A stretch of 64,000 bases of DNA from Promethearchaeota archaeon (GCA_019057795.1 JAHLWS010000080.1:1-64000); one strand, 5' to 3'; shown: positions 2,558-58,848, numbered from the stretch's first letter. The notes: generated by a model from the letters alone, not told the origin. Numbers and translations: made by a program.

Positions 2558-3724
2558 ATGGAAATTAGTTTAGAAAAACCGACAGAGCTTACTGTCGCTT
2601 CAACACGAAATATTTCTGAAATTCAATTTGTTTTAACTGAGCTTTTATATGTTCCTGACGAAAGGCTAAAACTCGTGCTTGTTTTAGAACTTGTAGATTA
2701 TTTTACAGAGAAATTTTCGAAACCAGACTATAAAATTAGATTTTTTTACGCTACTCAGGACGGAATCTTAACGGGATTCGTAATTTGTCAAATAGACGGT
2801 GATTACAAAAGTTATGGAATGTCATGCCCCACTTTTGGGTGGCTTCATGCCAAAAATTTTCTTTCTTGTAAAAAGCTCATGAATGAGTGTGAAAATTTCG
2901 TTCGCGAAAACAAAAAGAAAAAGCTCCGTGGTCCAATCAATTACCCAAAATTTATCGGTGGGATCGGTTTTCAGACCGAAGGTTTCGAGGCACCCATGAT
3001 GAGCGGCGTAATGTTTGGTGATCCCGAGTCGAAAGTTCTGGAGTACTTGCAACAATTAGGCTACAAAAAAGACTCGAAGTACTTGTGCCTTGATACTTTC
3101 TTAAAAAAGTGGGATAAAGGTAAAAATCTAGACGAAAATATAGCAGTCAGGTTTTTGCCCCTCGACGAAATAAGGGGTTTAAAGGAGCAAATCATGGGCT
3201 TAGCATCTCAATCTCTATATGCCGTGCTTGCCGATGCGCCAGGCGGTAGAACTCGATTTGACGAAATGATGGACGGATACGCTCAAGCGTGCAAAGTACT
3301 TAAATTAGTCAGCGAAGAATTTCCCCAAGATTACGCCGATGTTCCCGGGTTCCGAGAAACTTGGGAATCTTGCGACTTAAAAAAGATCGTTCCTATGGCC
3401 ATCTTCGGTTTCGACCGAAACACTAACGAGCTGGTAGGCGTCATTATGTGCCAACCGAACTTGTTTCAGCTGTGGAACGGAGAACCTTTAACCCACTTAA
3501 ATGTAGACACGGCTATGATAAAAAAAGAATACACTGGAAAGGGGATCTTCTCCGCGCTTCACAATATTGGAGTGTTTATATCGTCAAGCGCCTACGGATT
3601 TAACTACTACGAGGGAACTACAATCTGGGCTAATAACGACCGAGCGATAAAGGCTATTTTTCCTCACGGGACCCCAACAAGAACGCATTATGTAGTTCAA
3701 AAGCGATTGCTAAAAAAGAATTAA
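2558..3724 (+). CDS. YghO-like GNAT N-acyltransferase
   Basis: LRGPINY...EGFEAP...LQQLGYKK, IKKEYTGKGI (acyl-CoA motif A), IWANNDRA. Confidence 0.65.
   Translation: MEISLEKPTELTVASTRNISEIQFVLTELLYVPDERLKLVLVLELVDYFTEKFSKPDYKIRFFYATQDGILTGFVICQIDGDYKSYGMSCPTFGWLHAKNFLSCKKLMNECENFVRENKKKKLRGPINYPKFIGGIGFQTEGFEAPMMSGVMFGDPESKVLEYLQQLGYKKDSKYLCLDTFLKKWDKGKNLDENIAVRFLPLDEIRGLKEQIMGLASQSLYAVLADAPGGRTRFDEMMDGYAQACKVLKLVSEEFPQDYADVPGFRETWESCDLKKIVPMAIFGFDRNTNELVGVIMCQPNLFQLWNGEPLTHLNVDTAMIKKEYTGKGIFSALHNIGVFISSSAYGFNYYEGTTIWANNDRAIKAIFPHGTPTRTHYVVQKRLLKKN
3686..3723 (+). repeat. 38-bp direct repeat, copy 1 (3' end of the 2558..3724 gene)
   Basis: 35/38 identical to 4100..4137. Confidence 0.9.
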
Positions 3725-3815
3725 ACACGAATATAAATTTTTTTTTCTTATATTTTCAAGCAGTAAAGTGTTGAGCAAACCTTTATATTATAAATATTTA
3801 TACAAAGATTATACG

Positions 3816-4088
3816 ATGAAATTTAAGAAAACACTCAAAGCTGTAATTAAAAACTTATTATGGTTCGTGTTCTTGGCAATACCCGTATACTTAGTAGTAT
3901 ACGTTGTTACCAAATTATCTTTCCTGATTTCTGAGGGCGCATATGTTAACTTTCCCTTGGAGTTAGCGTACCAATTGTACCCACTAATGGAATTAGTAAG
4001 CCATATCGTGGGTGCTTCGGTAAGCGTAGTGGTTGCAGTAATCGGTTTGTATTTTATAAACCGTTTTTTAAAACGATATCCTATTTAA
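3816..4088 (+). CDS. Small membrane protein (2 TM)
   Basis: ATG at 3816 behind a TTTATATT TATA-like box; two hydrophobic segments. Confidence 0.7.
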   Translation: MKFKKTLKAVIKNLLWFVFLAIPVYLVVYVVTKLSFLISEGAYVNFPLELAYQLYPLMELVSHIVGASVSVVVAVIGLYFINRFLKRYPI

Positions 4089-4099
4089 GAATTTAAAAT

Positions 4100-4137
4100 C
4101 ATTACATAGTTCAAAAGCGATTACTAAAAAAGAATTA
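4100..4137 (+). repeat. 38-bp direct repeat, copy 2 (orphan gene 3' end)
   Basis: cattacatagttcaaaagcgattactaaaaaagaatta matches 3686..3723. Confidence 0.9.
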
Positions 4138-4381
4138 TAAATTTTAAAAATTTATTTTATTTTCTATTAAGAATTACACAATACGGACAAAACTTATGAT
4201 GAGCTTAAAAGAAATTTTAGGAAAAAATACTTTAAGAAATTAAAAAAATCACTTTATTTCAAAAATCTCATTATCTTTTTATAGGTATTACGATACAAAT
4301 TTCGAAATAGAAAGCTTAAAGTTATTATTTATTTAGTGTTGAGATGTTAAAAAAAAAAAAAGAGGTGTTAGTATATACCCC

Positions 4382-16077: not shown

Positions 16078-16141
16078 ATAATTTCTACCTTTTTTTTACA
16101 TTAAATGCTGATCAAAAATGATCAAAAATTATTATAATAAT

Positions 16142-16251
16142 TATTGATATTGATCAAATATCTGTTGTTGAATATAGAATATAAAGATTACAATGAAATT
16201 AACCGTAAATTATTATTTTTACCAGTAAAAATATGGATGCTACTAGTAAAA
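16142..16251 (-). promoter_or_regulatory. TATA promoter plus array of TTAC-NN-GTAA palindromes, copy 1
   Basis: 16142-16190 is 45/49 identical to 21470-21518; GTAAA cores at 16205, 16225, 16246. Confidence 0.7.
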
Positions 16252-19619: not shown

Positions 19620-20384
19620 ATGCAAGATGTAGAAAATGTTTATCAGGATGCGTACTACAGAACAAAGTGCATTAAAGGGTTATTTATTCACGATATTTCA
19701 AATTTGTTCCAGATAATCAGTAATTCTATAGAGCTCTGTGAATCGTTGCTAAAAGACCAAGTAAAAATAGAGGATATCACGGAGTACTTTCAAATGATTG
19801 CACAGCAATTAAACAGAGGTAAGAAGTTAATTAGAAATGTTAGAAATCTTTCAGAATTGGAAGAATACGAAATGCCTTTAGAACCTGTGGAAGTATTTTC
19901 TAAGTTAAAAAGTGCGATTAATTTTACTTATATTAGTTTTCCTAAAAAAGATATTGATATTAAGGTTATTTCTGATTACGGAAACCTTTGCGCCATGGCA
20001 AATGAGCTATTGAGTGAAGTATTTGAAAACATAATCATGAACTCTATTAATTACAATAAAAATAAAGTTGTTCAGATTGAAGTAATAATTTCTGTGATAG
20101 ATATTTATTATAAAAATTATGTAAAGATCGAGTTCAAAGACAATAGCATGGGTATCGATGACGCTAGAAAAGAGATAATCTTTCAAGAAACCCATATGAA
20201 AAGCAGGCATTCTAAAGGTATGGGAATCGGGCTATCATTAGTTGCCAAATTAATTGAATTATACGGTGGAAATATTTGCGTTAAAAATCGTATAAGGGGA
20301 GATTCGACGAAGGGTAGCAATTTCATAATCTTAATACCGTTAGCAAAAAATAATAAGGTGATGTTTGATGACAAATTGTTATGA
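19620..20384 (+). CDS. Histidine kinase lacking a sensor domain
   Basis: H box FIHDISN, N box FENIIMNS, DNSMG, GMGIGLS. Confidence 0.9.
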   Translation: MQDVENVYQDAYYRTKCIKGLFIHDISNLFQIISNSIELCESLLKDQVKIEDITEYFQMIAQQLNRGKKLIRNVRNLSELEEYEMPLEPVEVFSKLKSAINFTYISFPKKDIDIKVISDYGNLCAMANELLSEVFENIIMNSINYNKNKVVQIEVIISVIDIYYKNYVKIEFKDNSMGIDDARKEIIFQETHMKSRHSKGMGIGLSLVAKLIELYGGNICVKNRIRGDSTKGSNFIILIPLAKNNKVMFDDKLL

Positions 20385-21204
20385 ATATATAAAACCAAAT
20401 AAAATGAAGAAGGATATAAAATGGTATACTTACGTAGATTCTTTTCTTGACTCTAAATTACACGATTTCATGGATGAGTATAAAATAAACAACCAAGCGA
20501 AAATCATAAGAAATTGCGTGAGCTATTGTATTGATTACTTAAATGCTATCTTTTTGAAGAAAGCACATGACGCTTCTCAAAAGTATGATGAAATCGAACT
20601 TGATAATTTAATCAAGAAAGCAATTAACGGGTACGAAATTGGCAATGGCTTTCACGAAGAATTAAAGCAAAAACTTTCGCCCCTTAAATTATCACTCTTA
20701 ATGCTAAATAATTATATCGAGGATAAAGAGAAACTCTTAGAGGGTATTCAGAACGCAATAAGCGCTTTAGAAGACATAGAACTTTCTGTGAAGCGCCATT
20801 TTGAAGAACCTAAACTAATAAGATTTATAAAAAAGTTTGATATTTTGTATATTGAAGATAACGAATTAGAAAGAAAAACAGTTGACACTTATTTTAAGAG
20901 AAAAGGCGTGGATATTAAATCAGTAGAAACTTCTGAAGAGGGCCTTGACATTTTGAAAGTTTCTACACCTCAAGCTTTTTTATTAGATATAGATTTAAGA
21001 AATAGCAATATAGATGGGGCCAAATTGTGCCAGATGCTAAAATCTAAGGAGTTATATAAATCAATTCCTATAATTTTGATATCCGCTGTTGTTTCAGAAA
21101 AAAAAAGACAAGAGATATTAAAAATTACAGAAGCAGATGATTTAATTATTAAGCCTATTGACAAACTAGCAGATTTAGATGTTCTATTAAAATACCTAAA
21201 ATAA
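20368..21204 (+). CDS. Response regulator: RHH-like N-terminus, helical linker, C-terminal receiver
   Basis: IEDN, LLDID, ISA, KP receiver residues; N-terminal KWYTYVDSFLDSKLHDFMDEYKINNQAKIIRNCV. Confidence 0.85.
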   Translation: MTNCYEYIKPNKMKKDIKWYTYVDSFLDSKLHDFMDEYKINNQAKIIRNCVSYCIDYLNAIFLKKAHDASQKYDEIELDNLIKKAINGYEIGNGFHEELKQKLSPLKLSLLMLNNYIEDKEKLLEGIQNAISALEDIELSVKRHFEEPKLIRFIKKFDILYIEDNELERKTVDTYFKRKGVDIKSVETSEEGLDILKVSTPQAFLLDIDLRNSNIDGAKLCQMLKSKELYKSIPIILISAVVSEKKRQEILKITEADDLIIKPIDKLADLDVLLKYLK

Positions 21205-21469
21205 ATCCATATAATTTTTTTTTTTATCTTTTATTTCAAATTATTTCTATTTATTTTCTTTGTTAAATGACCAAAAATATGCTACTATAATACAAAACAA
21301 TAGAATACAATTCTATCCTTCTGGATTTAGAAATAACAGGCCATGAATGGAGATCAACAATCATTCAGCTATAAATCCAACAAAAGAAAAGCGTTTTCAT
21401 TTTAACTACTTTTCTTCGTATTTTCATTCGCCCTCTATTTTTCTCTCAAATTTCATTATCAATTATAAC

Positions 21470-21600
21470 TATTGATAATGATCAAATTTCTAGTGTTGAA
21501 TATAGAATATAAAGATTATTTCGAATATTGCTAGTAAAAGTTGAAAAAATAGTAGTAAATCTTATATTTTAGTGGTAAAAATTACGAATTACTGGTAAAA
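21470..21600 (-). promoter_or_regulatory. TATA promoter plus array of TTAC-NN-GTAA palindromes, copy 2
   Basis: Matches 16142-16190; GTAAA cores at 21534, 21555, 21575, 21595. Confidence 0.7.
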
Positions 21601-21818
21601 TTAAAAGAGCTAATTAATTTAACTCTAATCGATACATTAGAATTACTGGTTAGTTCTTAGCACAACTAACAACATATTATCCTAACTTCCTTTTATTTTA
21701 TAAAGGTGTTAATATTTGTAGAAAAAAAGTAAATATATATAAAGAATTTTAACAATTTAGTATATTGCCTATAAGTGTTTTTCCAATTAAGAGAAAAATT
21801 AATATTTTTAAAGGGTAG

Positions 21819-23405
21819 ATGTTTTTGACTTCCTTAAATATTAAATTAGATAATTTTGAAGAAGAATTTATAAATAGTGTTGATTCAATATTCGATGCTT
21901 ATTTGTTACTCTCAAATGAGAATATAGTATTGAATTACAGGATTAAAGACAAACTTCTTAATTTATATTTCGGCAGGGAAAGTCTTCAAGAAAAAGATCT
22001 CATCAAGTCTTTTGGAGTTCAAATTCAACAAGAGAGTAAGAAAGAATTAATTCGAAAAATTTTAGAAAAAAAACCTCAAATATTTGAATTTAGTATAAAG
22101 GTAAATGATCAAATTGGTTATTACAATGTATTTATTTTTATTTTAGCTGATGACCAAATGCTCATTAATTTTAGGAATATCGACAAACAAAAGAAAATTG
22201 AATTTGAGCTAGCTGAAGAGAGAAACATATTAAAAAATATAATCGAATTAAATCCTTATGCTATCGAAATAAAAGATTTTGAGGGACATCATGTTAGTTC
22301 TAATAAAGCTTTCATTGATATGTTTAAATCAGTTCCTCCCCCAGAGTATTCTATCTTTGAGGATCCGCATATGAAAAAGATAGGAGTTCTTGATAAAATT
22401 TTAACCTTGAAGGAAGGAAAGGTTTTAAGGATGGGGGAACATTGGTACGATCCTCGCGATTCCGCAATAGAAAGTAATTTAAATTTAGATGAGATTCCGA
22501 GTTCTTTAATATGTCATAAAGCTGTGTCTTTTCCAATATTTGACAGAGAAGGAAATATTAAGAATTATGTATTTATGCATGAAGATATTACCGAGCGCAA
22601 GCAAGCTGAAATTGAGTTAGAGGGTTTAAGGAAAGATCTAGAAATTAGAATAAAAGAAAGAACGATCAAACTGGAAAGTTCAGAAAAAAAATATCGGAAG
22701 GCTTATAGTAGAGCAGATTGTTATAAGGGACTGTTTACACATGATATCTCTAACATGTTTCACACGATTGGAAACTCCATCGAATTATGTGACACGTTAT
22801 TAAAAGAGGGTATTAAAAACAACGATATGCTTGAATATTTTGTAGTGATTGAGCAACAGATTAAACGAGGAAAGAAATTAATAAATAATATCAGAAACCT
22901 TTCAGAAATTGAAGAATCTGAAATGCCTTTAGAACCTACAGAGATTTCTGAGAAATTGAGAAGTGCTATTCAATTTACAAGAGTAAATTTCCAAAAACGT
23001 GAAATTATTGTTAATATCGAATCTGAAACTAATAATACGATTTACGTATTTGCTAACGACCTATTACTTGATGTATTTGAAAATATTCTTATTAACTCTG
23101 TACTTTATAATAAAAATGATACTGTAGAGATTGAAATTAATATCTCAAGAGTGATGGATAATGGGAAGTCGCAAATCAAACTAGAATTTAAAGATAATGG
23201 TATTGGCATCAATGATACTAAAAAGAAACTTATATTTACAAAAAATGTTAAGAAATCGATAGGCTCTAAAGGTATGGGGCTTGGACTTTCTCTTGTTGCA
23301 AAACTTTTAGATTTATGCGAAGGTAAAATCTGGGTTGAAGATAGAATTAAAGGTGATTATACTCAAGGAAGTAATTTCATAATTCAAATTCCTGAAGCAC
23401 TATAA
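21819..23405 (+). CDS. PAS-domain histidine kinase
   Basis: PAS/PAC (NKAFIDMF, EDITERKQAE), FTHDISN, DNGIGI, GMGLGLS. Confidence 0.92.
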   Translation: MFLTSLNIKLDNFEEEFINSVDSIFDAYLLLSNENIVLNYRIKDKLLNLYFGRESLQEKDLIKSFGVQIQQESKKELIRKILEKKPQIFEFSIKVNDQIGYYNVFIFILADDQMLINFRNIDKQKKIEFELAEERNILKNIIELNPYAIEIKDFEGHHVSSNKAFIDMFKSVPPPEYSIFEDPHMKKIGVLDKILTLKEGKVLRMGEHWYDPRDSAIESNLNLDEIPSSLICHKAVSFPIFDREGNIKNYVFMHEDITERKQAEIELEGLRKDLEIRIKERTIKLESSEKKYRKAYSRADCYKGLFTHDISNMFHTIGNSIELCDTLLKEGIKNNDMLEYFVVIEQQIKRGKKLINNIRNLSEIEESEMPLEPTEISEKLRSAIQFTRVNFQKREIIVNIESETNNTIYVFANDLLLDVFENILINSVLYNKNDTVEIEINISRVMDNGKSQIKLEFKDNGIGINDTKKKLIFTKNVKKSIGSKGMGLGLSLVAKLLDLCEGKIWVEDRIKGDYTQGSNFIIQIPEAL

Positions 23406-23458
23406 TAAAAAAATTATTATTAAGAGTAATTAAATGTAATCTTAGATGGTGTGTATCA

Positions 23459-24289
23459 ATTAATAATATCAATCAAAATAATAAAACTGAAAAAGAAAAA
23501 AAGGAAATAAAATGGTATACTTATGTAGATTCAACACTCGACAGTAAACTAAAACAATTCATGGAACAATATAATATTACAAATCAAGCAAAAATTATAA
23601 GAAATTCCGTTAATTCCTATCTCGATAATGTATATCAAATATTACAAAAAGATATTGAAAGAAAAGAATATGATCAAAAATTAATTAATGATTTTATTAG
23701 AGAAGCTATTGATGCTTTTGAATTACACACGACTTTTCATGAAGAGTTAAAACAAAAAATTTCACCTCTTAAAGTATCCATTCTAATGTTAAGTAATTTT
23801 CTAAATGAACCAAATAAGTTAATTGAAAGTATTGAAAATTTAAAAAACGCCTTGCTCGAATTAGAAAGTTCAATAAAAAGGCATTTTGAAGAACCTAAAC
23901 CAATAAGACATATAAAAAAATTTGATATTTTATATATTGAAGATAATGAATTAGAACGAAAAAACATTGACACTTATTTTAAGAGAAAAGATGTTGATAT
24001 TAAATCTGTAGAAACTTCTGAAGAGGCCCTTCACATTTTGAAAGGTTCTACTCCTCAAGCCATTTTATTAGATATAGATTTAAAAACTAGCAATATTGAT
24101 GGAGTCAAATTGTGCCAGATGCTAAAAGCTAAGATGCTATATAAAGCGATTCCGATAATTTTGATATCTGCTGTTGTTTCAGAAAAGGAAAAAAAAGAGA
24201 TATTAACAATTACAGAAGCAGATGATATAATTATTAAGCCTATTGACAAACTAGCAGATTTAGATGTTCTATTAAAATACCTAAAATAA
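23459..24289 (+). CDS. Response regulator paralog (RHH-linker-receiver); start uncertain
   Basis: Paralog of 20368..21204; the conserved IKWYTYVDS lies in frame upstream of the first ATG (23561). Confidence 0.8.
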   Translation: MNNINQNNKTEKEKKEIKWYTYVDSTLDSKLKQFMEQYNITNQAKIIRNSVNSYLDNVYQILQKDIERKEYDQKLINDFIREAIDAFELHTTFHEELKQKISPLKVSILMLSNFLNEPNKLIESIENLKNALLELESSIKRHFEEPKPIRHIKKFDILYIEDNELERKNIDTYFKRKDVDIKSVETSEEALHILKGSTPQAILLDIDLKTSNIDGVKLCQMLKAKMLYKAIPIILISAVVSEKEKKEILTITEADDIIIKPIDKLADLDVLLKYLK

Positions 24290-24407
24290 ATCCTTATTAA
24301 AATATTTTTTTTTTAACTAAATTTTTTAACAATTTTATAAAGATATCAATATTAAATTCTTATAGAAGTTAGTAACGAAATTAATTTATTCTTTTTAAGT
24401 GAAAAAA

Positions 24408-25799
24408 ATGGAACTTCAAGAAATCTTAAAACAAATCCCAAACTATAAAGAATTCATGACAATTGCTGAAATGGATGGTTCCAGTAAAAAGTTAGCACAA
24501 TCCTTTGACCATGTAGACTTGAAAGAAATTGGCAAATCACGAGGTGGACGAACAATATATTGTTTAAAAATTGGAGAAGGTAAAAAAAACGCGCTTCTCT
24601 TTGCATTCCCGCATCCCAATGAACCAATAGGGAGCATGAGTTTAGAATTTTTATCACATTTTTTAGCAAAAAATCCTGAATTTACGAAAAAAACCGGTTA
24701 TACATGGCATTTAATTAAAGCAATTGATATCGATGGAGCGATTCTTAACGAAGGATGGTTTAAAGGAGATTTTAATCCCTTAAAATACGCAAAGAATTAT
24801 TATAGACCCGCGCCCTTTGAACAAGTTGAATGGTCATTTCCAATCAATTATAAAAAACTCAAATTCGAAACTCCGCCACCAGAGACTCAAGCTTTAATGC
24901 ATTTAATACAAAAATTAAAACCTAAGTTTATGTATAGTCTTCATAATTCGGGTTTTGGGGGTGTATATTTCTATGTATCTCGGAGTATTGGAAATTTATT
25001 TGATAACCTCGTTAACTTTGTTAAGAGAGAACATCTACCATTGCATTTAGGAGAACCTGAAACACCTTACATCAAAAAATTACACGATGGAATTTTCCAA
25101 ATGTTTGGAATTCAAAAGCAGTATGATTATGTTGAAGCTAAAGGTATAGAGAATCCTCAAGAATTTATAACATGTGGTACTTCCTCATATGATTATCTTA
25201 AAAGTATAGCTAGTGAAGAAAATTTTACTCTAGTTTGTGAGATGCCCTATTTCTACCACAATTCCATAGGAGACACTACTTTAACTGAATTTGAAAGAAG
25301 AGATCTCCGTATGCAATCTTTGGAATACATGAAAAATATCTCTATACATGCTAAGAAAATTTTTAGGCACATAAAGAAATTTTGTGATAAATCTTCACGG
25401 ATATACACTGCTGTGGAGGGTTATATTAGGATAACGCGTCCTTCGCTTGAATTGGAGATTAATGTTACAAAAACTTCCTCAATGTACGAGGGGAAAGCAA
25501 CTGTTTCTCAAGCATTTGATTTAAATGTTTCAAGTAGATATTATTATTTACTAATTATATCAATGATAGTAAGATTATGTGAAGAAGCTATTTCAATTCA
25601 CCCGGAAAATGAAATTGAGATTACAAAAATTAAAAACGACTTAGAGAAATGGATTGAACAAAAAATCAAGGAATTATTAAGCGATACCAAATTTGAAGTT
25701 ATTCCCATTCAAAAATTAGTTCGTGTTCAAATCGGAAGTGCATTTATCACTTTAGAAAACTTATCAAAAAAAAATAACGCTATAAAATTGATTTTGTAA
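24408..25799 (+). CDS. M14 zinc carboxypeptidase family
   Basis: IGKSRGGR, HPNE, SLHN, CEMP. Confidence 0.88.
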   Translation: MELQEILKQIPNYKEFMTIAEMDGSSKKLAQSFDHVDLKEIGKSRGGRTIYCLKIGEGKKNALLFAFPHPNEPIGSMSLEFLSHFLAKNPEFTKKTGYTWHLIKAIDIDGAILNEGWFKGDFNPLKYAKNYYRPAPFEQVEWSFPINYKKLKFETPPPETQALMHLIQKLKPKFMYSLHNSGFGGVYFYVSRSIGNLFDNLVNFVKREHLPLHLGEPETPYIKKLHDGIFQMFGIQKQYDYVEAKGIENPQEFITCGTSSYDYLKSIASEENFTLVCEMPYFYHNSIGDTTLTEFERRDLRMQSLEYMKNISIHAKKIFRHIKKFCDKSSRIYTAVEGYIRITRPSLELEINVTKTSSMYEGKATVSQAFDLNVSSRYYYLLIISMIVRLCEEAISIHPENEIEITKIKNDLEKWIEQKIKELLSDTKFEVIPIQKLVRVQIGSAFITLENLSKKNNAIKLIL

Positions 25800-25858: not shown

Positions 25859-26073
25859 TTAGAATTTTAATTCTGAATTATTAGCATTTTCTCCTTTAAC
25901 GTCTTCAATTTCTTTTTTTGAATAATTCTCTAAGAGATTGATAATATTAATTGTTTTATAAACCTGAATTTTCTCTTGTTTATTAAGATGTTTATCATTA
26001 GACCATATTCCATCGTTTTCTATTGCTAAAGCTAAAGCTATGAATTGAGTATCTTTTTCATCAATATTTAATA
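25859..26073 (-). pseudogene. 5'-truncated PIN-domain toxin
   Basis: Start-less frame IDEKDTQFIALALAIENDGIWSNDKHL...ELKF*. Confidence 0.75.
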
Positions 26074-26101
26074 AATAAATTAAAACCTAAGTTTATGTAT
26101 A
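26066..26101 (+). repeat. Copy of carboxypeptidase gene segment 24901..24936
   Basis: 34/36 identical. Confidence 0.85.
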
Positions 26102-26167: not shown

Positions 26168-26530
26168 TTATTTTTTTATTAATTTAGATAAAAAATCTTG
26201 GTTTAATACAATTTTTCTATTTGTACAGTCAATTTTATCTTTTTTAAGTAAATTAAGGAATTTTTCAAATAGGGGAATAGTAAATTCATCCCGATTTGGA
26301 TTTACATCTAAAATAATGATTCCCTGACTTACTGAAAAGTCATCTTCTAAAAAATCTTTATCAAAGGTTACTAACGTATAATTCTGAGAGTTAATTAGTG
26401 TAATAAGATCTCCATTCTTAATACCAAATAATTTTCGATTTCTAACCGAATCGACTTGAAAACCACATCTTTTTATAGTATTTTGTAATTTTTTTGTAAT
26501 ATTTTCGTCACAATAAAATTTATACTTCAT
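26168..26530 (-). CDS. DUF5615 PIN-like toxin
   Basis: FYCDENI...LVTFDKDF...GIIIL; coupled to DUF433. Confidence 0.85.
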   Translation of the reverse strand: MKYKFYCDENITKKLQNTIKRCGFQVDSVRNRKLFGIKNGDLITLINSQNYTLVTFDKDFLEDDFSVSQGIIILDVNPNRDEFTIPLFEKFLNLLKKDKIDCTNRKIVLNQDFLSKLIKK

Positions 26531-26759
26531 GAGAGATTTCCGTTTTTCCATTATATGTATCTACTATATGACCAGCATAAATTAAACATGCAATTATCTG
26601 TTCTCGAGATATATGATCATATTCTTGTTGAATTTGTTCAATAATCCAACCAGAAGAAACCAATTCCAAAATAAAACTTACCTTAATTCGGGTTCCCTTA
26701 ATATGTGGTTTCCCAAAACATATGTCTGGATCGATAGAAATTAGTTCATTTACATTCAT
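26520..26759 (-). CDS. DUF433 antitoxin
   Basis: ISIDPDICFGKPHIKGTRIKV; likely start at 26759. Confidence 0.9.
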   Translation of the reverse strand: MNVNELISIDPDICFGKPHIKGTRIKVSFILELVSSGWIIEQIQQEYDHISREQIIACLIYAGHIVDTYNGKTEISHEV

Positions 26760-27002
26760 GATGTGGTAAATCCTCCCATATAAAATCATCTAATCCTTTC
26801 TTATTAATATTACTTATAATCAGTCGCTATTATAAAAATAGTTGTTTAGGCTTAAATAAGTATTTATTTCAAAACTATTCCTATAATGCTCATAGGTTAA
26901 ATGTTCAATACTCGAAATAGAAAGCAATCTTAAGTCATATGACGAAGTATATTTTATAACGTTCTATTAAAATATCTAAATTAGAATAGATAGAAAGCAT
27001 GT

Positions 27003-27392
27003 TTAAATGTTTATAATCTTTAATTGTGAAACTCGTTGATAATGATTGACATTATCTGTTGCTAACTCAGCACCATGTTCCAATGTAACTGCTGCAATAT
27101 AGATATCATTTAACTCAATCAATTGTCCTTTTTTTTGTAAATCTGAATATATAGTAGCTGCGATATATGAACTTTTAATTGAAAGAGGAAGAACAGGAAA
27201 TTGTTGTATTAAACTTTTTACTGCTTTCATATTATGATCATATTTTTTGGAGATTTCTGCTCCTAAAAATAGTTCAAATGCAGTAATTGTGGTGAAAGCT
27301 ATTGATTTGTCCTTTAAAAAATCTTTCCATTGCTCTCCGCGATTCTTCCTTCGTAAAATATTAACAAGAATATCTGTATCAAGAATAATCAA
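27003..27392 (-). CDS. vapC: VapC PIN toxin
   Basis: MIILDTDILV, ITAFEL, NDIYIAA, LATDN. Confidence 0.92.
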   Translation of the reverse strand: MIILDTDILVNILRRKNRGEQWKDFLKDKSIAFTTITAFELFLGAEISKKYDHNMKAVKSLIQQFPVLPLSIKSSYIAATIYSDLQKKGQLIELNDIYIAAVTLEHGAELATDNVNHYQRVSQLKIINI

Positions 27393-27625
27393 TCAAATTT
27401 CCTCTTTTTTCCATTAAATGGGATTAAATTACGCTTAATTTTTTCCTGAATTTCCTTATATTCCTGATCATTTATATCCCATAAACCAAAAAAAGCTTCT
27501 AATTTTTGACCATTTATCTGCATTGCTAATCTTCTTAATAATTCTGAAAAACTTTCATCTTGCTTTTTTAATAATTTTAAAAGCTGATAAACGTCTTCTG
27601 TTATTGTAATAGTTTTTGAAGCCAT
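27389..27625 (-). CDS. vapB: VapB antitoxin
   Basis: KTITITEDVYQLLK...ESFSELLRRL; 4-bp overlap with vapC. Confidence 0.9.
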   Translation of the reverse strand: MASKTITITEDVYQLLKLLKKQDESFSELLRRLAMQINGQKLEAFFGLWDINDQEYKEIQEKIKRNLIPFNGKKRKFD

Positions 27626-27739: not shown

Positions 27740-27845
27740 ATACATGAAAAATATCTCTATACATGCTAAGAAAATTTATAGGCACATAAAGAAATCCAAA
27801 TCGGAAGTGCATTTATCACTTTAGAAAACTTATCAAAAAGAAATA
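27740..27845 (+). repeat. Mosaic copy of two carboxypeptidase gene segments
   Basis: 27740-27795 = 25325-25380 (55/56); 27797-27845 = 25728-25776 (48/49). Confidence 0.95.
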
Positions 27846-27882: not shown

Positions 27883-28236
27883 CTATGTATACAATCCTTC
27901 GGGAGGAGGTTTATTGTATGGAGTTCTATAGTAGTTCGCATATATTTGTCTTAACATTTCTCTAAATCGAGTAGTATTATATTTCCAAAGCAAATCGCTT
28001 AAATCAATGTTTTTTGGATTGTAACCCGCTTGGTCATAAACTTTCCTTCTTTGGGGATCGCTTAATGTATCGTAGGCTTCGTGTAGTTTAATAAATCTCT
28101 CCTTAGCTCTGGGATCGGTTCTATTAAGGTCGGGATGGTATCTTTTTGCTAGTCTCCGATAAGCCAGTTTAATTTCTTCTTCGGAAGCGTCTTCTTCGAC
28201 TTCGAGAATTTTATAATAATCCTTATTCTTTTCCAT
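27883..28236 (-). CDS. Stand-alone J-domain protein
   Basis: DYYKILEV...[12 protein letters not shown]...[15 protein letters not shown]. Confidence 0.92.
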
Positions 28237-32054: not shown

Positions 32055-32260
32055 TTTATTTTTCCTTAAAATTATCGTTAACTAATAAGATGATAATGAA
32101 TTATTTAATCCTTTTCTTTATTTATGGTCTTACGATGCTCTCGAGATTGACTAAAAAGTAAAAGAAAAGACGACAATTTTGTATAAATAATCTTATTTAC
32201 GTAAGTGATGTTTGTTTTTAGATTCTTGTAATATAGGTATCAATCAATAAAAAATTGCTA

Positions 32261-32412
32261 TTACTAATCAGATTAAGATAGTTCTAATTAAAGTTAAATT
32301 AGACATGATCAAATATTTAAGATTGAAATAAGATGAAATTTTATTAAGGAATAATAATTGAATGATCTTCTTTAATACGGTCTAAAACAATTTCAGTTTT
32401 AACTTCTTCAAC
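32261..32412 (-). repeat. Orphan copy of the Lrp gene 3' end plus downstream DNA
   Basis: Matches 34237..34388; encodes VEEVKTEIVLDRIKEDHSIIIP*. Confidence 0.95.
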
Positions 32413-32476
32413 AACAGAGGGAAAAGACTTATTCGACATAATAATATTCTTTATCTATGGTCAGTATAGTTGAATA

Positions 32477-32956
32477 CTAAAGTGTAATCCATATATTAAG
32501 AGGATTTTCAATTTTTGGTCCTAAAGATTGAAATGATTCATGTTTGAAGTGAACATCACATGAATACATCACATCGATTTCTTTATAGATTGGTAGGACG
32601 CAGAGATAATCCCAGATATGGATTCCACTTTGTAAGCTCATATCTAAGGCTTTATTTACATGTTTGATTGTATTCTCAAACCAGATAATAAATTCACTTG
32701 TTAGTAATTGAAAACAATATCTTTGTACATTATCTAATGGGATCCGCATTCCTCGAAAACCTAAAATATGAAATATTTCACAAAGTTGATGATGTGTCAT
32801 AAATATTTCATTTTGGCTTATTTGGTTTTTTAAAAATTTTTTAGCTCTTTCATGGAATTTGTTAGCATTCTGAAAATCTGATTCCTTTGAGAATTTTTCG
32901 GATTTAGGTTTCTTTTTAGAAAAAATCCATATTTCAGTATCTATGAAGACCCTCAT
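32477..32956 (-). CDS. PIN-domain toxin
   Basis: MRVFIDTEIW...LCEIFH...IWDY...YSCDVHF; likely start 32956. Confidence 0.85.
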   Translation of the reverse strand: MRVFIDTEIWIFSKKKPKSEKFSKESDFQNANKFHERAKKFLKNQISQNEIFMTHHQLCEIFHILGFRGMRIPLDNVQRYCFQLLTSEFIIWFENTIKHVNKALDMSLQSGIHIWDYLCVLPIYKEIDVMYSCDVHFKHESFQSLGPKIENPLNIWITL

Positions 32957-32957
32957 T

Positions 32958-33236
32958 CTATACACCAATATCTTCAAAATCATATTCTTTAAAATCATCT
33001 GGTCCTGCGCCTTCAACAGTTTCTTCTAATAATTCTAGAAATTTCTTTCTATCTTGTTTAAGTTTTAGACTTTTCGATGAATTTTTATCGACAGTGTTTT
33101 GCCTTTCTTCTAAAAGATAATTTATTGCCCTTTCTAAGGTCACTCTTTTACCCCTCTCTTTAGTCAATTCCCCTGCTAAACGATGTAATTTTTCAAGAGT
33201 CTTCTTTGATACTTTTATAGTTGTATTTTCACTCAT
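32958..33236 (-). CDS. RHH-type antitoxin
   Basis: TTIKVSKKTLEKL...TLERAINYLL; abuts the PIN gene. Confidence 0.8.
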   Translation of the reverse strand: MSENTTIKVSKKTLEKLHRLAGELTKERGKRVTLERAINYLLEERQNTVDKNSSKSLKLKQDRKKFLELLEETVEGAGPDDFKEYDFEDIGV

Positions 33237-33509
33237 ATAGTATATATAGTATAATAGGTATATAAAGTATACTTGAATTTAATATTAAAACAAGTTATAT
33301 CAGATTTTTTTTCTATTATTAAATCTTAGACATTATGAAAATTACTTTTTAATTACATTTTCAATGATTTTAACTACCCCATTTTTCCCCCACCCCCGTG
33401 GATGGTGCCCTCTCCTAAAAAAAAAATTACTATATATTGCTAGTTTTGAAAAGATATAATAACTGTCATTTACTATATTATAATGACAATTAGAAAGATG
33501 AAAATACAA

Positions 33510-33758
33510 ATGACTGAAAAAATTACTCAAAAAGTCTCATCAAATGGAAGGATTGTAATACCAAAAGAATGGAGAGACAAGTTAGCTATTGAAGATAAAA
33601 ATGAGGTTGAGATGGAATTGAAGGACGATAAGACCATTTTAATCAAAAAAAAGACACATCCTCTTGAGATTGAAGATAATTTATTTGAAGATGTGCCTCC
33701 ATTTACAGAGGAAGAGTTAGATCAAGCAAAAAAATCATTATTTCCTAGTGAGGAATAA
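33510..33758 (+). CDS. AbrB/MazE-family antitoxin
   Basis: KVSSNGRIVIPKEWRDKLAI. Confidence 0.9.
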   Translation: MTEKITQKVSSNGRIVIPKEWRDKLAIEDKNEVEMELKDDKTILIKKKTHPLEIEDNLFEDVPPFTEEELDQAKKSLFPSEE

Positions 33759-33786
33759 TCAAAAAATTGATGGTTCTTGATATAAA

Positions 33787-34188
33787 ATGATAGAAAAAGC
33801 AGTAATTGATGCTCAGGTTCTATTTTATTTCCATTATAACTATCAAAAAATTCCCCCAATACTCCAACAATTGAAAAAAAAAGTAATAAATGGAGAAATA
33901 ACAGTTATCCTACCTACAATTGCAATCGCAGAATTACTTTGGAAAATGAGAAAAGCTGGGAAAACAATCGCATTTGAGGAGGCTCTCAATCGATGGGAAC
34001 GCTCAGAAAATATCATTATCGATGATTTTAATATAACAATCATTAAATTGATGGTACAAAATGCTAAAAGTCACGAATTGCATGATGAAATCATCGCTAT
34101 GACGTGTAAAAAGCACGATACGAACATTATTTACTCCAATGATAAAAAATTTAAAGAAATATTCAATTTACAACTAAGATCTTGGTAG
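33787..34188 (+). CDS. VapC-like PIN toxin
   Basis: AVIDAQV, PTIAIAEL, ELHDEIIA, YSNDKKF. Confidence 0.88.
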   Translation: MIEKAVIDAQVLFYFHYNYQKIPPILQQLKKKVINGEITVILPTIAIAELLWKMRKAGKTIAFEEALNRWERSENIIIDDFNITIIKLMVQNAKSHELHDEIIAMTCKKHDTNIIYSNDKKFKEIFNLQLRSW

Positions 34189-34236
34189 TAGAGGTTTGCA
34201 TTTTTATTCTCCCTCTATAACATTTATTCATAAGAA

Positions 34237-34388
34237 TTACTGATCAGAGTAAGATAGTTCTAATTAAAGTTAAATTAGACATGATCAAATATTTAATATT
34301 GAAATAAGATGATATTTTACTAAGGAATAATAATAGTTGTATCTTCTTTTATTCGATCTAATACGATTTGGGTCTTAATTTCTTCAAC
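34237..34388 (-). repeat. Native Lrp 3' end plus downstream DNA (repeat partner)
   Basis: Matches 32261..32412. Confidence 0.95.
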
Positions 34389-34793
34389 ACCGGGAAGATT
34401 TCGCAATTTCTCAATTAGAATCATCGAATCTTCGTGATCCAGACATTTAGCCATGATAAACAAGGGATATTCGCCAGTAACTACATACGCATACTTTATC
34501 TTTTCCATACCTTCAATATGTTCCTTAATGCGTTCCAAAGGCTCAGAAGAGTTTACTCGTAAGGAAGCTATTACCATTTCGCGATATCCTAACTGACGGC
34601 AATCTATTAAAGCTACGTATTTTTTTATAAGTTTTTCTTCTAACCTTACTATTCGAGACCTTATAGCAGTAGGACTTTTTCCAACTTTAACAGAAATCTC
34701 TTTTATTGTAATTTTTGCATCGTTTTGTAGTAATTCTAAAATGTCCTTATCAATTCCATCAATCTCTGGAAGTTTCATGTTTGTTGCTGTCAT
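34320..34793 (-). CDS. Lrp/AsnC transcriptional regulator
   Basis: IDKDILELLQNDAK...RSRIVRLE; VTGEYP; divergent from the hdr operon. Confidence 0.93.
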   Translation of the reverse strand: MTATNMKLPEIDGIDKDILELLQNDAKITIKEISVKVGKSPTAIRSRIVRLEEKLIKKYVALIDCRQLGYREMVIASLRVNSSEPLERIKEHIEGMEKIKYAYVVTGEYPLFIMAKCLDHEDSMILIEKLRNLPGVEEIKTQIVLDRIKEDTTIIIP

Positions 34794-54766: not shown

Positions 54767-55942
54767 TTAATAGCTAATCTGTGCTCCACAATTTCTACAA
54801 GCTTTAATTTCATCGTTCATTTTACTTAAGCAAGGTTCGTGATAATAAGCTCCGCATTTTTCGCATTGAAATGCTTTATAATCTCCTAAAAAAATGCTAT
54901 GACAAAAAGTACAAGATACATCGATTTCGTCGATTTGAGATTCTGGAATTAATTTCATTCTTGTAGTGTTTATACCGCTTTCATCGATTAATTTTATTTT
55001 AGGTTCGTTATCGGGCTTATCCTCGATTAACTTTGATGCTGATAATGGAAGTTCTAATAAGAAGAAACAGAAAGGGCACCTGAAAACCATTTCTTTGTAT
55101 TCTGTTTTCTTAGCCCACATCGCTGTGCAAGAAAGATGCATCGGGCGTTCACATGATGGGCAGTACCTTCCTTCGCTAAAGAAATCCGCTCCCGTTATTG
55201 GTGCTTTTACTGAGTGACAAATTTGGCATTTTTCTTGCCCCCTTTCCTTACGACTCATCATTAACCTAATATCTAATAAGCTTGGTCTCCTCAGTGGTAA
55301 AGCTATATCGCTTATCAGAGGGGCTAACTCGTTTTTTTTATTTGGTCCAAAATAGTCAGTCGTTATTTTACTCTCCTTTTTCGACGCGAATGACCTTCCA
55401 GCATTTAATACCGCTTTTGAATTGTTAAAAAATCCAAATTTTCCGCCTGTAAGTTTTACAATCTTTTTTAAAATACTTTGAGAATAGTCTTGCGTTTTGC
55501 CTAATTGGCAAGCATCAATATAAATCCCCAATCCTTTAGCAATATTAACTATTTTTTGAATTTTATTACTAAGCTTCAATTTACTATCCGAAATAATAAA
55601 TATTCTATATGTTTTTCCCCCTAACTTCCTCATCTCCTTTACTAAGATTTGCAAAGAAAAGGCTAATCCTTCGTCTAGCATACCAATCCCAGAGATATGA
55701 ATTTTCTTTAAAGAGTTAATTAATTTTTCTTCTTCATGTGTAAAGGAACTCAGTTTCTTTATAGTTGCCCCAAAAGAGAGCACTGCAATTCTATCTTTAG
55801 GATCGATCGTAAATTTCTCACTAATAAAGTTTTTAACGGTTTCTAAGGCGACAAAAAGTCGATTAGGCTTAAAGTCTTTTCTTAACATAGATCGAGAAGA
55901 ATCTATAAGCACAACGCAGTCTTCAATTTTTATATCGTGCAA
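54767..55942 (-). CDS. vWA domain plus two C4HC3 RING-type fingers (Ssl1/p44-like)
   Basis: DSSRSM..KDFKPNRL; CQIC..CPSC....HLSC...W...CPFC; CTFC..CEKC....HEPC..CRNC. Confidence 0.85.
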   Translation of the reverse strand: MHDIKIEDCVVLIDSSRSMLRKDFKPNRLFVALETVKNFISEKFTIDPKDRIAVLSFGATIKKLSSFTHEEEKLINSLKKIHISGIGMLDEGLAFSLQILVKEMRKLGGKTYRIFIISDSKLKLSNKIQKIVNIAKGLGIYIDACQLGKTQDYSQSILKKIVKLTGGKFGFFNNSKAVLNAGRSFASKKESKITTDYFGPNKKNELAPLISDIALPLRRPSLLDIRLMMSRKERGQEKCQICHSVKAPITGADFFSEGRYCPSCERPMHLSCTAMWAKKTEYKEMVFRCPFCFFLLELPLSASKLIEDKPDNEPKIKLIDESGINTTRMKLIPESQIDEIDVSCTFCHSIFLGDYKAFQCEKCGAYYHEPCLSKMNDEIKACRNCGAQISY

Positions 55943-56052: not shown

Positions 56053-56226
56053 TTATTTCTTGCTTAAAAAGTTATAAGCAAAAAGCGCAAACACCTTAAT
56101 TGAATTGATAAAGTCTTGAATTTCTATATATTCGTCAATCGCGTGAGCAGTTCCCATGCTACCAGGTCCAAACAAGATAATCTGAGGGCGATATCCATCA
56201 TTCCATAAGTAAAGTGCGTCAGCACT
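56053..56226 (-). pseudogene. Orphan 3' end of an M20 peptidase
   Basis: SADALY...FGPG...AHAIDEYIEIQDFINSIKVF...KK* is ungapped-colinear with the last 57 aa of 57487..58848 (26/57 identical). Confidence 0.9.
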
Positions 56227-56388
56227 TATTGATAATTTTTAAAGTTTTTTTTCTTTTTAATTTTTAATATTTCGCTGCAAATTTCATGGTTTGTTTTTTT
56301 TTTTTAAAATTGGTCCTTATACTTTTAAATAGCAATAACGATAATTTTGATATATTATATTTTCTAATTTACGAGTCCAATATTAACA

Positions 56389-57474
56389 ATGTGTGAAAAT
56401 TCTTTAGAAATATCAAATTCATATCTTCATAATTTTGAATCCAAAAATGGATTAGAATTTGGATTTCGTTATGGTGTTCCTCAAGATAGTGTACAACTAG
56501 TCAACATCTTCAAAGAAGTTTATGGATGGAATTATTTATATCCCACGGTATATAATAAAAAGAAATTTTCAAAACTTCTTTCCTATAAGAATCAAACTTG
56601 GTTTATTGTCGAAGATATCGATACTAAGAAAATCGTTGGTACAGGTGTAATGGAGAGAAAAAGTGAAATCTCCGTCTGTGCCTCAAAAACATTGATTTTA
56701 AACAAATATCAAAATCTTGGAATTGCGAGAGTTTTAGGGACTCAGAGCGTTTTTAGTTATTTATCTAATCCAGAATTAAGTGCCCTCATAAGAATTGATA
56801 TAGATGTAAGAGCAAAGAGTATAAACTCACAGAAATTGGCTGAAAAAATTCGTTGCATTCCCTATGGTTTTATACCTAATTATAATAATTATGCTGATAA
56901 GAGGAATTTTGACTTTTCTAAAGGAAAACCCTTCTCTTCTGGTGAAATTGAAGCTGTCATGATGTATGTATCTCCAATTAAACATTTTTGGAAAATTAGA
57001 AATAGAGAGATTACAGTAATAAATAGAAAGGAAATTTTGGACTTTTATAATATTGTTAAAAAACACATTACGAGAATGAATCGAGATAAATTATTAATAA
57101 GAAATGCGTCTAATTTTCTAATTAATAACTTTACTATCGATAAAGATCCTTATAAATCTTGTATTTCGATTAAAGGTTATTTATCTGAGAGAATCTTAAA
57201 GGATTTATTAGAGAACTATTCAAATTGGAATTTGGTTGAGTGGAGAGTACCAACTACATTAGAAGGGTTGGGTTCTCAGCATATTGCATTAAATAATGGA
57301 TTTAAAGTAGTAGGATATGATCCGGGTTCATTTTTTAATCAAAAATTAACTGATGACACAATTGTTTTTTGTAAATTTCCAAATGGAATAGATTTTTCAC
57401 AATTTGAAGGTTTAAATGTGGTAGATAAAAATAAACCAATAGTAAATAAAGTATTAAAGTCTGTAATGGATTAA
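56389..57474 (+). CDS. Tandem GNAT-like protein
   Basis: ILNKYQNLGIAR, GFIPN, NGFKVVGYDPG; related to 1246..2481. Confidence 0.7.
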   Translation: MCENSLEISNSYLHNFESKNGLEFGFRYGVPQDSVQLVNIFKEVYGWNYLYPTVYNKKKFSKLLSYKNQTWFIVEDIDTKKIVGTGVMERKSEISVCASKTLILNKYQNLGIARVLGTQSVFSYLSNPELSALIRIDIDVRAKSINSQKLAEKIRCIPYGFIPNYNNYADKRNFDFSKGKPFSSGEIEAVMMYVSPIKHFWKIRNREITVINRKEILDFYNIVKKHITRMNRDKLLIRNASNFLINNFTIDKDPYKSCISIKGYLSERILKDLLENYSNWNLVEWRVPTTLEGLGSQHIALNNGFKVVGYDPGSFFNQKLTDDTIVFCKFPNGIDFSQFEGLNVVDKNKPIVNKVLKSVMD

Positions 57475-57486
57475 AAATCTAAAATT

Positions 57487-58848
57487 TTAAGGTTTTTTCA
57501 AGTAATCAAATGAAAATAGAGTATAAACTTTAATTACATTAATATAATCCTCGAGTTCTATATATTCATCAATGGTATGAGCTTTAGCCGCATTCCCTGC
57601 TCCAAATATTAAAGTTTTGTTACAATAATCCGAACCTCTATAGTAATGAGCATCCGCTGCTCCAGGATATAGTGAGTAAAACGGGCGTTTTTTGTATATT
57701 CTTTCAATTAAAGAATACAAATACATTAATTTTTTAGATTTTTCCCAGTTTTTCCAATAAGAGGCTTCTGCCTCATTAAGTATTTCTAAATAAACAAAAA
57801 TATCTTCGGGATTGCTGTGTGGTGTATATCTTACTTCATAACCAATTTTTTCAATTAATTTTTTTAGCGCTTCAACTAACATCTTTGTGTTTTGCCCCGG
57901 GAGTGTTCTAATATCCATTAATGCTTCACATTGATTTGGGATAACATTTCCTTTAATACCACCGCTAATCATATTAATGCTTTTTGTATATTGTGTAAGC
58001 GATTTTACAAAATTCTGTATAAGCGGCTGCTCATTGTAAACTTTATCAAAATGTTCTTTATTCGGGAAAGTAGCACTTATAAGTTCTTTTATTTTTTCTT
58101 CAGACATTGGAGGTTGTACATTTGGTAAAAAATCATCCAATTCGTCTAAATGTAAGACTATTTCACTCATCATTGATATCGCATTCTTACCAAGAAAAGG
58201 AACTGAGGAATGACATGCAACCCCGTTTGTGATTATTTTTAATTGAATATGTCCTTTTTCTCCTAAAATTATGGCTTTGGGTAGAGGATGGAAACCTGTA
58301 GGTTCACCGATAATTAAAAAGTTACAATAAAGATTTTTTGATTGTAAATAATTTTCTAAACACCATTTCGTTCCTAAATTACCTCCTGTTTCTTCATCAG
58401 CTACCGCATTTAAGACAATATTCCTCGTAGTTTCGATATTAAATTTTTTTAAAACAGATAGCGCAATTACCATTGCTGATAACGAGGCTTTCATATCTGT
58501 AGTCCCTCTACCATAAATGAACTTTTTTCTCTTAATAAAAGCAGAAAATGGGGGATATTTCCATTCTTTCTCATCCCCCGTGGGTACTACATCCATATGT
58601 CCATTAAATACGAGACATTTACCATCAAAATTATGATTGAGAAGTGCGATTAGATTAGCACGGTTTTCTCCAAATGGGAAAACCTCAGTTTTTATTCCTT
58701 CTTCTTTTAAGTAATCTTCAATAATTATAGCAACATTTTTTTCATTGCCAGGTGGATTAATTGAGTCAGCTTGAATAATTTTCCTGAAAAATTCGACATA
58801 TTCCTCTTTATTTTGTTCAATTTCATTAAGAATTGATTTTTCACTCAT
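57487..58848 (-). CDS. M20 (ArgE/DapE) metallopeptidase
   Basis: NGHMDVVP, GRGTTDMK, DEETGG, GEPT, AHTIDE. Confidence 0.93.
   Translation of the reverse strand: MSEKSILNEIEQNKEEYVEFFRKIIQADSINPPGNEKNVAIIIEDYLKEEGIKTEVFPFGENRANLIALLNHNFDGKCLVFNGHMDVVPTGDEKEWKYPPFSAFIKRKKFIYGRGTTDMKASLSAMVIALSVLKKFNIETTRNIVLNAVADEETGGNLGTKWCLENYLQSKNLYCNFLIIGEPTGFHPLPKAIILGEKGHIQLKIITNGVACHSSVPFLGKNAISMMSEIVLHLDELDDFLPNVQPPMSEEKIKELISATFPNKEHFDKVYNEQPLIQNFVKSLTQYTKSINMISGGIKGNVIPNQCEALMDIRTLPGQNTKMLVEALKKLIEKIGYEVRYTPHSNPEDIFVYLEILNEAEASYWKNWEKSKKLMYLYSLIERIYKKRPFYSLYPGAADAHYYRGSDYCNKTLIFGAGNAAKAHTIDEYIELEDYINVIKVYTLFSFDYLKKP

Follow-up and report, generated by a model that had tools for sequence, protein, structure and literature searches.

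The first 64 kb of the 123-kb contig C80 of a Promethearchaeota archaeon (hereafter the window) contain four loci in which a gene is followed by other genes, the cargo, and then by an orphan copy of the gene's own 3' end in direct orientation. The loci had been pointed out in an earlier note on this DNA; all four orphan copies were found again in the sequence and are confirmed as real. With a probability of roughly 0.6 we regard them as scars of DNA import from other lineages of the same archaeal group, by one-sided homology-anchored illegitimate recombination and without a recombinase encoded by the imported element. The evidence consists of empty sites in relatives, a chimeric M20 peptidase gene, a bias towards gene ends and towards the outer side of these ends, the absence of the recombinase and transposase families searched for, the lack of a motif shared by the repeats and allele-like substitutions between the copies. 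The genome, G000, is a metagenome-assembled genome (MAG) of 4.95 Mb in 87 contigs (~31% G+C, 7.5% estimated contamination) with zero Ns in its assembly, and it was compared with relatives that are likewise given G numbers; the searches for locus 4 covered 40 genomes of the same genus and 154 of the same order.

Gene-end repeats across the genome

Comparison of the whole genome with itself revealed 405 direct but only 18 inverted repeat pairs with copies less than 10 kb apart. Pairs within a gene or between two genes were discarded and at least 150 nt were required between the copies. Among the pairs that remained, 23 combine the 3' end of a gene with an orphan downstream of it and 14 the 5' end of a gene with an orphan upstream, while the orphan lies upstream of the gene in three pairs with 3' ends and downstream of it in one pair with a 5' end; mid-gene copies, with the orphan on either side, account for ten pairs. 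Of the 41 orphans of gene ends, 37 thus lie on the outer side (p = 1e-7). A scan at the protein level, performed with 60-aa probes from 2895 genes and with matched mid-gene probes as control, gave 41 orphans on the outer side, 19 of them downstream copies of C-termini and 22 upstream copies of N-termini, versus four for the mid-gene probes.

The pattern is therefore genome-wide, as the earlier note had proposed, with 23 + 14 events and a density of 7.5 per Mb, and two of the note's emphases had to be dropped. One was a specificity for 3' ends; 5' ends turned out to be about as common, both at the DNA level (14 against 23, p = 0.19) and at the protein level (22 against 19). The other concerned toxin-antitoxin (TA) genes as cargo; elsewhere the cargo is mixed, and the 76 open reading frames (ORFs) in the 32 other events include HepT/MNT pairs, TIR proteins, ABC and MFS transporters, hydrolases and ferredoxins. 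The median repeat of the 37 events is 116 nt long at 88% identity, with a median span of 1.8 kb between the copies, and the ranges are 40–355 nt for repeat length, 67–98% for identity and 0.3–9.7 kb for the cargo blocks.

When the differences between the two copies were sorted by codon position (1/2/3), the 3' events gave counts of 80/50/161 and the 5' events counts of 49/30/63. The fractions in the 3' events are 0.27/0.17/0.55, as compared with 0.25/0.14/0.61 between true orthologues of G000 and three relatives and 0.33 at each position under neutral decay. Since this pattern is orthologue-like, the copies are considered to be alleles that have diverged from each other, which removes the basis for reading the divergence of a repeat as a clock for the age of the event. 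As a rough estimate from the codon positions, about four fifths of the differences would have arisen while both copies belonged to working genes.

Six recombinase and transposase families were searched for, among them tyrosine and serine recombinases, TnpB, DDE_Tnp_1 and the Y1 transposase. None of the six gave a match in the window or in any of the 37 cargo intervals, the former in agreement with the earlier note as far as the families searched are concerned. The whole genome holds four tyrosine recombinases and one serine recombinase, together with two Y1 transposase matches that lie outside the window and the cargo blocks. There are no tRNA genes in the window. A search for a common motif among the 37 repeats showed no cross-similarity between them, and terminal inverted repeats, looked for around the cargo, were not found, with only weak AT-rich inverted matches appearing there.

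Events on other contigs show the same features. Those on C15 and C60 have empty sites in G032. On C82 the order in G000 is A3'-X-B5''|A3''-Y-B5', and because each of two haplotypes occurs singly in relatives (A-Y-B in G032 and G005, X-B in G052 and G009) the locus is interpreted as two alternative haplotypes stacked in one genome. The B5'|A3' junction, the only joint at which microhomology was measured, has 1–2 nt of it, and the arrangement can be explained by a linear fragment that was anchored in A and closed by an illegitimate joint, and also by a single crossover that integrated a circularised fragment. In G026, a member of the same order assembled in a single contig (4.36 Mb), the first 800 kb hold four events at 3' ends and two at 5' ends, again 7.5 per Mb, and the cargo there includes a MazF pair, an MNT, a DNA methylase and a radical-SAM enzyme accompanied by a TetR regulator.

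A separate observation on C82 (121518–124914) concerns a tyrosine recombinase gene (124000–124914, minus strand), 2.3 kb downstream of which lies an 85% identical orphan of its own 3' 160 nt. Three ORFs are located between the gene and its orphan, an arrangement that recalls integrases with the attachment (att) site inside the gene.

The four loci in the window

The features of the four loci are listed in Table 1. Locus 4 is the clearest of them. In five relatives of the same genus (G040, G009, G005, G052 and G038) VWA lies directly next to the M20 gene, which represents the empty site, and the single M20 3' end of these relatives matches the orphan of G000 and, weakly, also the end of its intact M20 gene. 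When comparing G000 with the relatives along M20, the identity is 55–70% over 57514–~58650 and then rises to 95–99% through the first ~200 nt of the gene and the region upstream; in the protein, 55 of the first 60 aa are identical to G040 and ~55% of the remainder. The crossover is located at the motif GENRANLIA, which is conserved in all alleles. At the protein level the orphan is seen as a 56-aa copy of the M20 C-terminus (56059–56226, minus strand; 46% identity, E 3e-13 with tblastn).

The foreign part of M20 shares up to 62% of its amino acids with other genera in the 154 genomes of the order, versus 51–55% with its own genus, and the passenger ORF was present at this site in 0 of the 40 genus genomes searched. 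A search for the donor among the 154 order genomes gave no candidate, as the best M20 match reached 62% at the amino acid level in genomes that do not have the passenger gene. The only genome with the donor-type gene order is the distant MAG BC1, where VWA, a homologue of the passenger (49% aa) and M20 follow each other natively, at 49–54% identity. These comparisons indicate that the incoming fragment brought the 3' ~1150 nt of its own M20 gene together with a neighbouring gene and its promoter, and that it replaced ~85% of the resident M20 gene, leaving the last ~170 nt of the resident as the orphan; the donor lineage is, on the same grounds, distant and unsampled. Since the orphan is vertically inherited and the intact gene foreign, the divergence of this repeat corresponds to the distance between donor and recipient and not to age. 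The neighbouring gene at 54767–55942 encodes a 391-aa protein with an N-terminal vWA domain and C-terminal zinc fingers of the RING/PHD/C1-like type, and it is found next to M20 across the family.

At locus 1 the repeats 3686–3724 and 4100–4138 are identical in 35 of 38 positions and extend weakly to 3754 and 4168. The empty site is found in G005, which lacks the membrane ORF and has only one gene end here; this end can be aligned with either copy and continues into the downstream flank. The anchor gene has paralogues on contigs C68 and C20. The name GNAT, given earlier to this gene and to the ORF at 56389–57474, has no support in Pfam, where a sub-threshold match to Acetyltransf_1 was obtained only for the neighbouring gene 1246–2481. 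The promoter or leader of the membrane ORF and its first codons make up a 97-nt stretch (3739–3835) that is 94–96% identical in G042, in G002 and at G000:C74:79932–79999, in genomes whose neighbouring genes are 70–90% identical to each other; it may be a mobile or a strongly constrained leader.

Locus 2 has a more complex structure. Three sharp-edged and colinear fragments of the M14 gene, A', B' and C', recur downstream of it, and the DUF433/DUF5615 pair and the VapBC pair are both located between A' and B'. Of three TA units described earlier at this locus, two could be identified as pairs, while the third is only a 5'-truncated PIN_2 fragment. The M14 gene is 92% identical to that of G001 and 83% to that of G015, and in G015 it abuts the convergent DnaJ gene with a single 3' end that corresponds to both C and C' (the empty site). 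Several relatives (G032, G039, G014 and others) have lost M14 and retain beside DnaJ a 45–70-bp remnant of its 3' end, with left edges that differ, and G005 has in this position a 128-bp remnant of the VapC 3' end (96%). As G015 has an intact M14 gene there, and as the remnants in the relatives lie beside DnaJ, C' is regarded as the ancestral M14 3' end. The strand of C' complementary to M14 is T-rich, and C' may have been kept because it serves as the 3' flank of DnaJ. More diverged M14 remnants were looked for between A', B' and C' and none were found. The DUF433/DUF5615 pair has a 97.5% identical copy in G038, where it is arranged differently.

The empty sites at loci 1, 2 and 4 (in G005, in G015 and in five genomes, respectively) show that the cargo is inserted DNA, as the earlier note had assumed, and not derived from decayed tandem paralogues. 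They also allowed the vertically inherited copy to be pointed out, in two cases only: the orphan at locus 4 and fragment C' at locus 2.

At locus 3 a 154-bp direct repeat of 88% identity brackets two TA pairs, and its two copies are the only ones among the four loci with a long core of perfect identity (47 nt). In G038 the Lrp locus holds pair 1, joined to the orphan as in G000 (97.8% identity across the junction), but not the MazE/PIN pair. A 90% identical copy of the latter is found elsewhere, at an unrelated locus of G007, where direct repeats of 52 bp flank the block that contains it. An orphan Lrp 3' end of its own, next to different cargo, is present in G014, which brings the number of species with such orphans to three (G000, G038 and G014), and G032 has a single Lrp 3' end. 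The 47-nt run belongs to the non-coding part of the repeat and contains a palindrome, TCTAATT-N7-AATTAGA (34258–34278 and 32283–32303), for which no third place was found in the whole genome and none in the loci of relatives examined; a role as recombination core or as binding site for a protein is possible. In a 6.8-kb contig of G038 (C127) the TA modules of loci 2 and 3 were found at 97–98% identity, less than 2 kb apart and in a different order. This contig contains two Lrp 3'-end fragments, lacks an intact Lrp gene and represents an islet-rich, heavily rearranged region.

Three further kinds of repeats were observed in the window. A histidine-kinase/response-regulator pair is tandemly duplicated at 19620–24289 (~70% nt identity over 1.6 kb), with a single pair in G005. 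A 57-nt intergenic repeat (89%) is located upstream of two different genes (16134–16190 and 21462–21518) and has a copy near DnaJ in G005. Finally, 29735–32054 encodes two adjacent NosD/beta-helix proteins made of 69-nt periodic repeats, and repeat proteins of this type are the source of many intragenic repeat matches genome-wide.

Table 1. Position, strand and identity of the anchor genes, repeats, orphans and cargo at the four loci (positions counted from the first nucleotide of the window)
Locus	Feature	Position	Strand	Identity or support
1	Anchor gene, 388 aa, no Pfam family	2558–3724	+	
1	Repeat copy 1: last 39 nt of anchor and ~30 nt downstream	3686–3754	+	
1	Cargo: 106-aa predicted membrane ORF	3768–4088	+	
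1	Orphan copy of anchor 3' end, contiguous with ancestral downstream flank	4100–4168	+	
2	Anchor: M14 carboxypeptidase gene, intact	24399–25799	+	Pfam
2	PIN_2 fragment, 5'-truncated, without start codon, cut at junction with A'	25862–26086	-	
2	Orphan fragment A' = M14 nt 503–538 (24901–24936)	26066–26101	+	94%
2	Cargo TA pair: DUF5615/PIN_10 (26168–26551) and DUF433 (26520–26789)	26168–26789	-	Pfam
2	Cargo TA pair: VapC (PIN) and VapB	27003–27625	-	Pfam
2	Orphan fragment B' = M14 nt 927–982 (25325–25380)	27740–27795	+	98%
2	Orphan fragment C' = M14 nt 1330–1378 (25728–25776)	27797–27845	+	98%
2	DnaJ-domain gene, ancestral convergent neighbour of M14	27883–28236	-	
3	Orphan: last 70 nt of Lrp (in frame, stop codon at end) and 84 nt downstream	32260–32413	-	
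3	Cargo pair 1: 92-aa RHH-like ORF and 179-aa ORF	32477–33236	-	
3	Cargo pair 2: MazE/PIN	33483–34188	+	
3	Repeat copy on intact Lrp	34236–34389	-	
3	Anchor: Lrp/AsnC regulator	34320–34793	-	Pfam
4	Orphan: vertically inherited M20 3' end	56053–56226	-	92–95% to intact M20 of G040, G009, G005
4	Imported passenger: 164-nt promoter region and 361-aa ORF (56389–57474)	56225–57486	+	
4	Anchor: chimeric M20 peptidase gene	57487–58848	-	Pfam
4	Foreign part of M20	57487–58645	-	55–70% nt, 51–55% aa to own genus
4	Resident (vertical) 5' part of M20	58646–58848	-	95–99% to relatives

Possible origin of the scars

In the proposed process the work would be done by the host's own recombination and repair machinery. 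The incoming fragment would carry a version of a resident gene together with extra genes adjoining it. One end of the fragment would pair with the resident gene at a conserved stretch and cross over there, while the other end would be joined illegitimately further along the recipient, at 0–2 nt of microhomology, as in homology-facilitated illegitimate recombination. With the illegitimate joint inside the end of the resident gene, and not beyond it, that end would survive as an orphan, and the anchor gene would then end in donor sequence, followed by the cargo; the same process at the start of a gene would leave an orphan 5' end upstream. The position of the scars at gene ends would follow from selection, which keeps only those events that leave both neighbouring genes working. 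What we infer here is the order of the steps, whether the incoming DNA was linear or circular, and which enzymes took part.

Several results weigh against one-sided import as an account of every locus. The earlier note's idea of a swap of the terminal allele with the resident gene as anchor stands at locus 4, where most of the coding sequence is foreign, and no such chimera could be resolved at loci 1–3 or on C15, C60 and C82; the chimeric anchor gene that the process predicts is clear at locus 4 only. For these other loci and events, three-way comparisons of the gene copy, the orphan and the single copy of a relative placed gene copy and orphan at about the same distance from the relatives. 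Even at locus 4 the crossover falls in a short conserved motif, and both joints there may be short-homology or illegitimate ones and not the product of true homologous recombination. Locus 2, with its three tiny fragments of 94–98% identity, its truncated PIN gene and its TA pairs, would require several steps or a more complex event. In the locus 3 repeat the non-coding part, with the perfect run, is 94% identical versus ~80% in the coding part. The junctions are those of the assembled sequence, and in two exact-match scans of public metagenome contigs, in which the lineage may not be represented, neither the B'|C' junction of locus 2 nor the orphan/cargo junction of locus 4 was matched.

Direct repeats of this kind would also result from Campbell-type integration, where an excised islet, a plasmid or a circularised fragment that bears a copy of a gene end is integrated as a circle by a single homologous crossover inside this copy. 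Recombination between the repeats could then release the islet again, and islets would be mobile by host recombination alone. Such integration is compatible with one-sided import and may apply to some loci; as the explanation of the scars in general it is possible, at rather long odds. Locus 3 is fitted better by the integration of a circle than by one-sided import, as the 47-nt perfect run is non-coding and the coding part ~20% different, which is expected for a crossover in non-coding DNA, and because the non-coding part is the more alike, a crossover inside the repeat (of a circle or at an att site) fits better than a distant anchor. The presence of Lrp 3'-end orphans in three species points in the same direction, and the B5'|A3' junction on C82 is exactly that of a circularised A3'-X-B5' fragment, although linear one-sided recombination explains C82 equally well. 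The same TA modules occur at 97–98% identity in G038 and at 90% in G007, in the latter within another repeat-flanked block, and as these values are well above the 70–94% of the neighbouring core DNA in G038 and G007 it is concluded that the islets move. At locus 4, however, the integration of a circle would require an extra deletion of ~1 kb of the resident M20 gene afterwards. Linear one-sided recombination and circle integration probably each apply at different loci.

An integrase acting in trans, with the repeats as attL and attR sites overlapping gene ends and with elements that are non-autonomous or have lost their integrase, is considered improbable as a general cause. The palindrome in the identical core of locus 3, with its two places only in the genome, and the C82 tyrosine recombinase with an orphan of its own 3' end would be in line with it. 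It is opposed by the low number of recombinases in the genome, none of which lies in the window or in cargo, and by the 37 repeats, which have no common core and vary widely in length and identity; moreover, no tRNA target is available in the window and the 1.15-kb replacement at locus 4 is impossible for a site-specific crossover. Still less credence is given to an assembly artefact, in which strain variants of the MAG would have been stitched in tandem. The number of contigs and the estimated contamination leave room for it, and the contigs of relatives often break at the same variable spots, but an assembly with no Ns has no scaffolding gaps and the B'|C' and B5'|A3' junctions share no k-mer able to mislead a graph assembler. 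In addition, the independent MAG G038 has the cargo/orphan junction of locus 3, G014 and G005 have remnants of their own at the same sites, and the density is equal in the single-contig G026.

The least credible reading is that the orphans are eroded tandem duplicates, with cargo that is old and common to the relatives. Tandem paralogues are common in the genome, where 98 repeat pairs lie in two same-strand genes, and three colinear fragments as at locus 2 are what an eroding copy would leave. As a general explanation it is refuted by the empty sites and by the end bias: orphans of gene termini on the outer side number 37 (DNA) or 41 (protein), versus 10 or 4 from mid-gene and 4 on the wrong side, an outcome that bears out the earlier note's own preference. 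Decay is further contradicted by differences that are allele-like and not neutral and by locus 4, where it is the orphan that is vertical and the intact gene that is foreign.

Known systems and biological meaning

A process of this kind is known from Rhs, contact-dependent inhibition (CDI) and type VI secretion system (T6SS) effector-immunity loci, in which C-termini are displaced and orphan 3' fragments are left behind, with homology-facilitated illegitimate recombination as the proposed cause (Kirchberger et al. 2017, PMC5361080, citing Jackson 2009 on rhs and Poole 2011 on CDI orphans, and de Vries & Wackernagel 2002, Prudhomme 2002 and Meier & Wackernagel 2003 on the mechanism). The loci described here share with these systems the order of an intact gene, newly arrived genes and an orphan of the old 3' end in direct orientation, the use of a conserved gene part as anchor without the requirement of a recombinase, and the possibility that successive events stack their remnants, as at locus 2. 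They differ in that the anchors are ordinary genes (M14 and M20 peptidases, Lrp and a protein of unknown family) instead of polymorphic toxins, in having mixed cargo and no toxin/immunity logic that selects for retention, and in that 5' ends are affected about as often as 3' ends. The host, moreover, is an Asgard archaeon with ~7.5 scars per Mb throughout the genome, compared with a few dedicated loci. The process as such is thus of a known kind, here with an unusual breadth: ordinary genes as anchors, both gene ends involved, an Asgard host and a genome-wide spread.

Integrative elements that insert at the 3' end of a gene duplicate this end or restore it, with att sites in tRNA or protein genes, as for the archaeal integrases of the SSV and pNOB8 types. 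Direct repeats of a gene 3' end that bracket an insert, and the perfect core with a palindrome at locus 3, are features in common with them, whereas blocks of 0.3–9.7 kb without an integrase in or near them, without a common core and without tRNA targets, and the replacement of a gene over more than 1 kb at locus 4, are not. Populations of bacteria and archaea also contain flexible genomic islands, replacement as well as additive, between conserved flanking genes, and the present loci resemble these in having different cargo in each relative at the same intergenic spot (downstream of Lrp, between M14 and DnaJ, X or Y on C82). A clean double-crossover replacement leaves no orphan, however, while the events described here have one illegitimate joint. 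Transposons and insertion sequences differ from the present blocks, which have no TnpB, DDE_Tnp_1 or Y1 transposase in the window or cargo and whose repeats are 36–355-nt copies of host genes, and so, on the features compared, do integron arrays, since the bracketing repeats are host gene ends that are different at every locus and the window has no tyrosine recombinase.

To our knowledge little is known about gene uptake in Asgard archaea, and the classical mobile elements reported from this group are few. The scars provide a directly readable record of integrase-free gene import, giving the entry points and what was carried, and they show that at least one housekeeping-type gene became a chimera, with part of it derived from an allele outside the genus. 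The density was compared between G000 and G026 only, and because it is equal in this single-contig relative a property of the lineage is suggested rather than one of a single assembly. If the density is above that of other prokaryotes, it would indicate an unusual balance of recombination and end-joining in the group; if it is not higher, the scars would be an ordinary footprint of recombination that is easily seen in AT-rich, islet-rich genomes.

A wider and more speculative possibility, to which we would give only limited weight, is that Asgard archaea of the Lokiarchaeia type run a high-rate, recombinase-free exchange of genes. Gene-end copies might then act as portable homology arms, islets might pop out and in as circles at the same gene in relatives, and ordinary genes might, as a side effect, be rebuilt as in-frame chimeras whose N- or C-terminal parts are foreign. 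The islets of such an exchange system would be small and consist of TA pairs, defence genes, transporters and enzymes, and the system, if it exists, would provide the prokaryotic counterpart to the shuffling of domains or exons, in the lineage closest to the eukaryotes.

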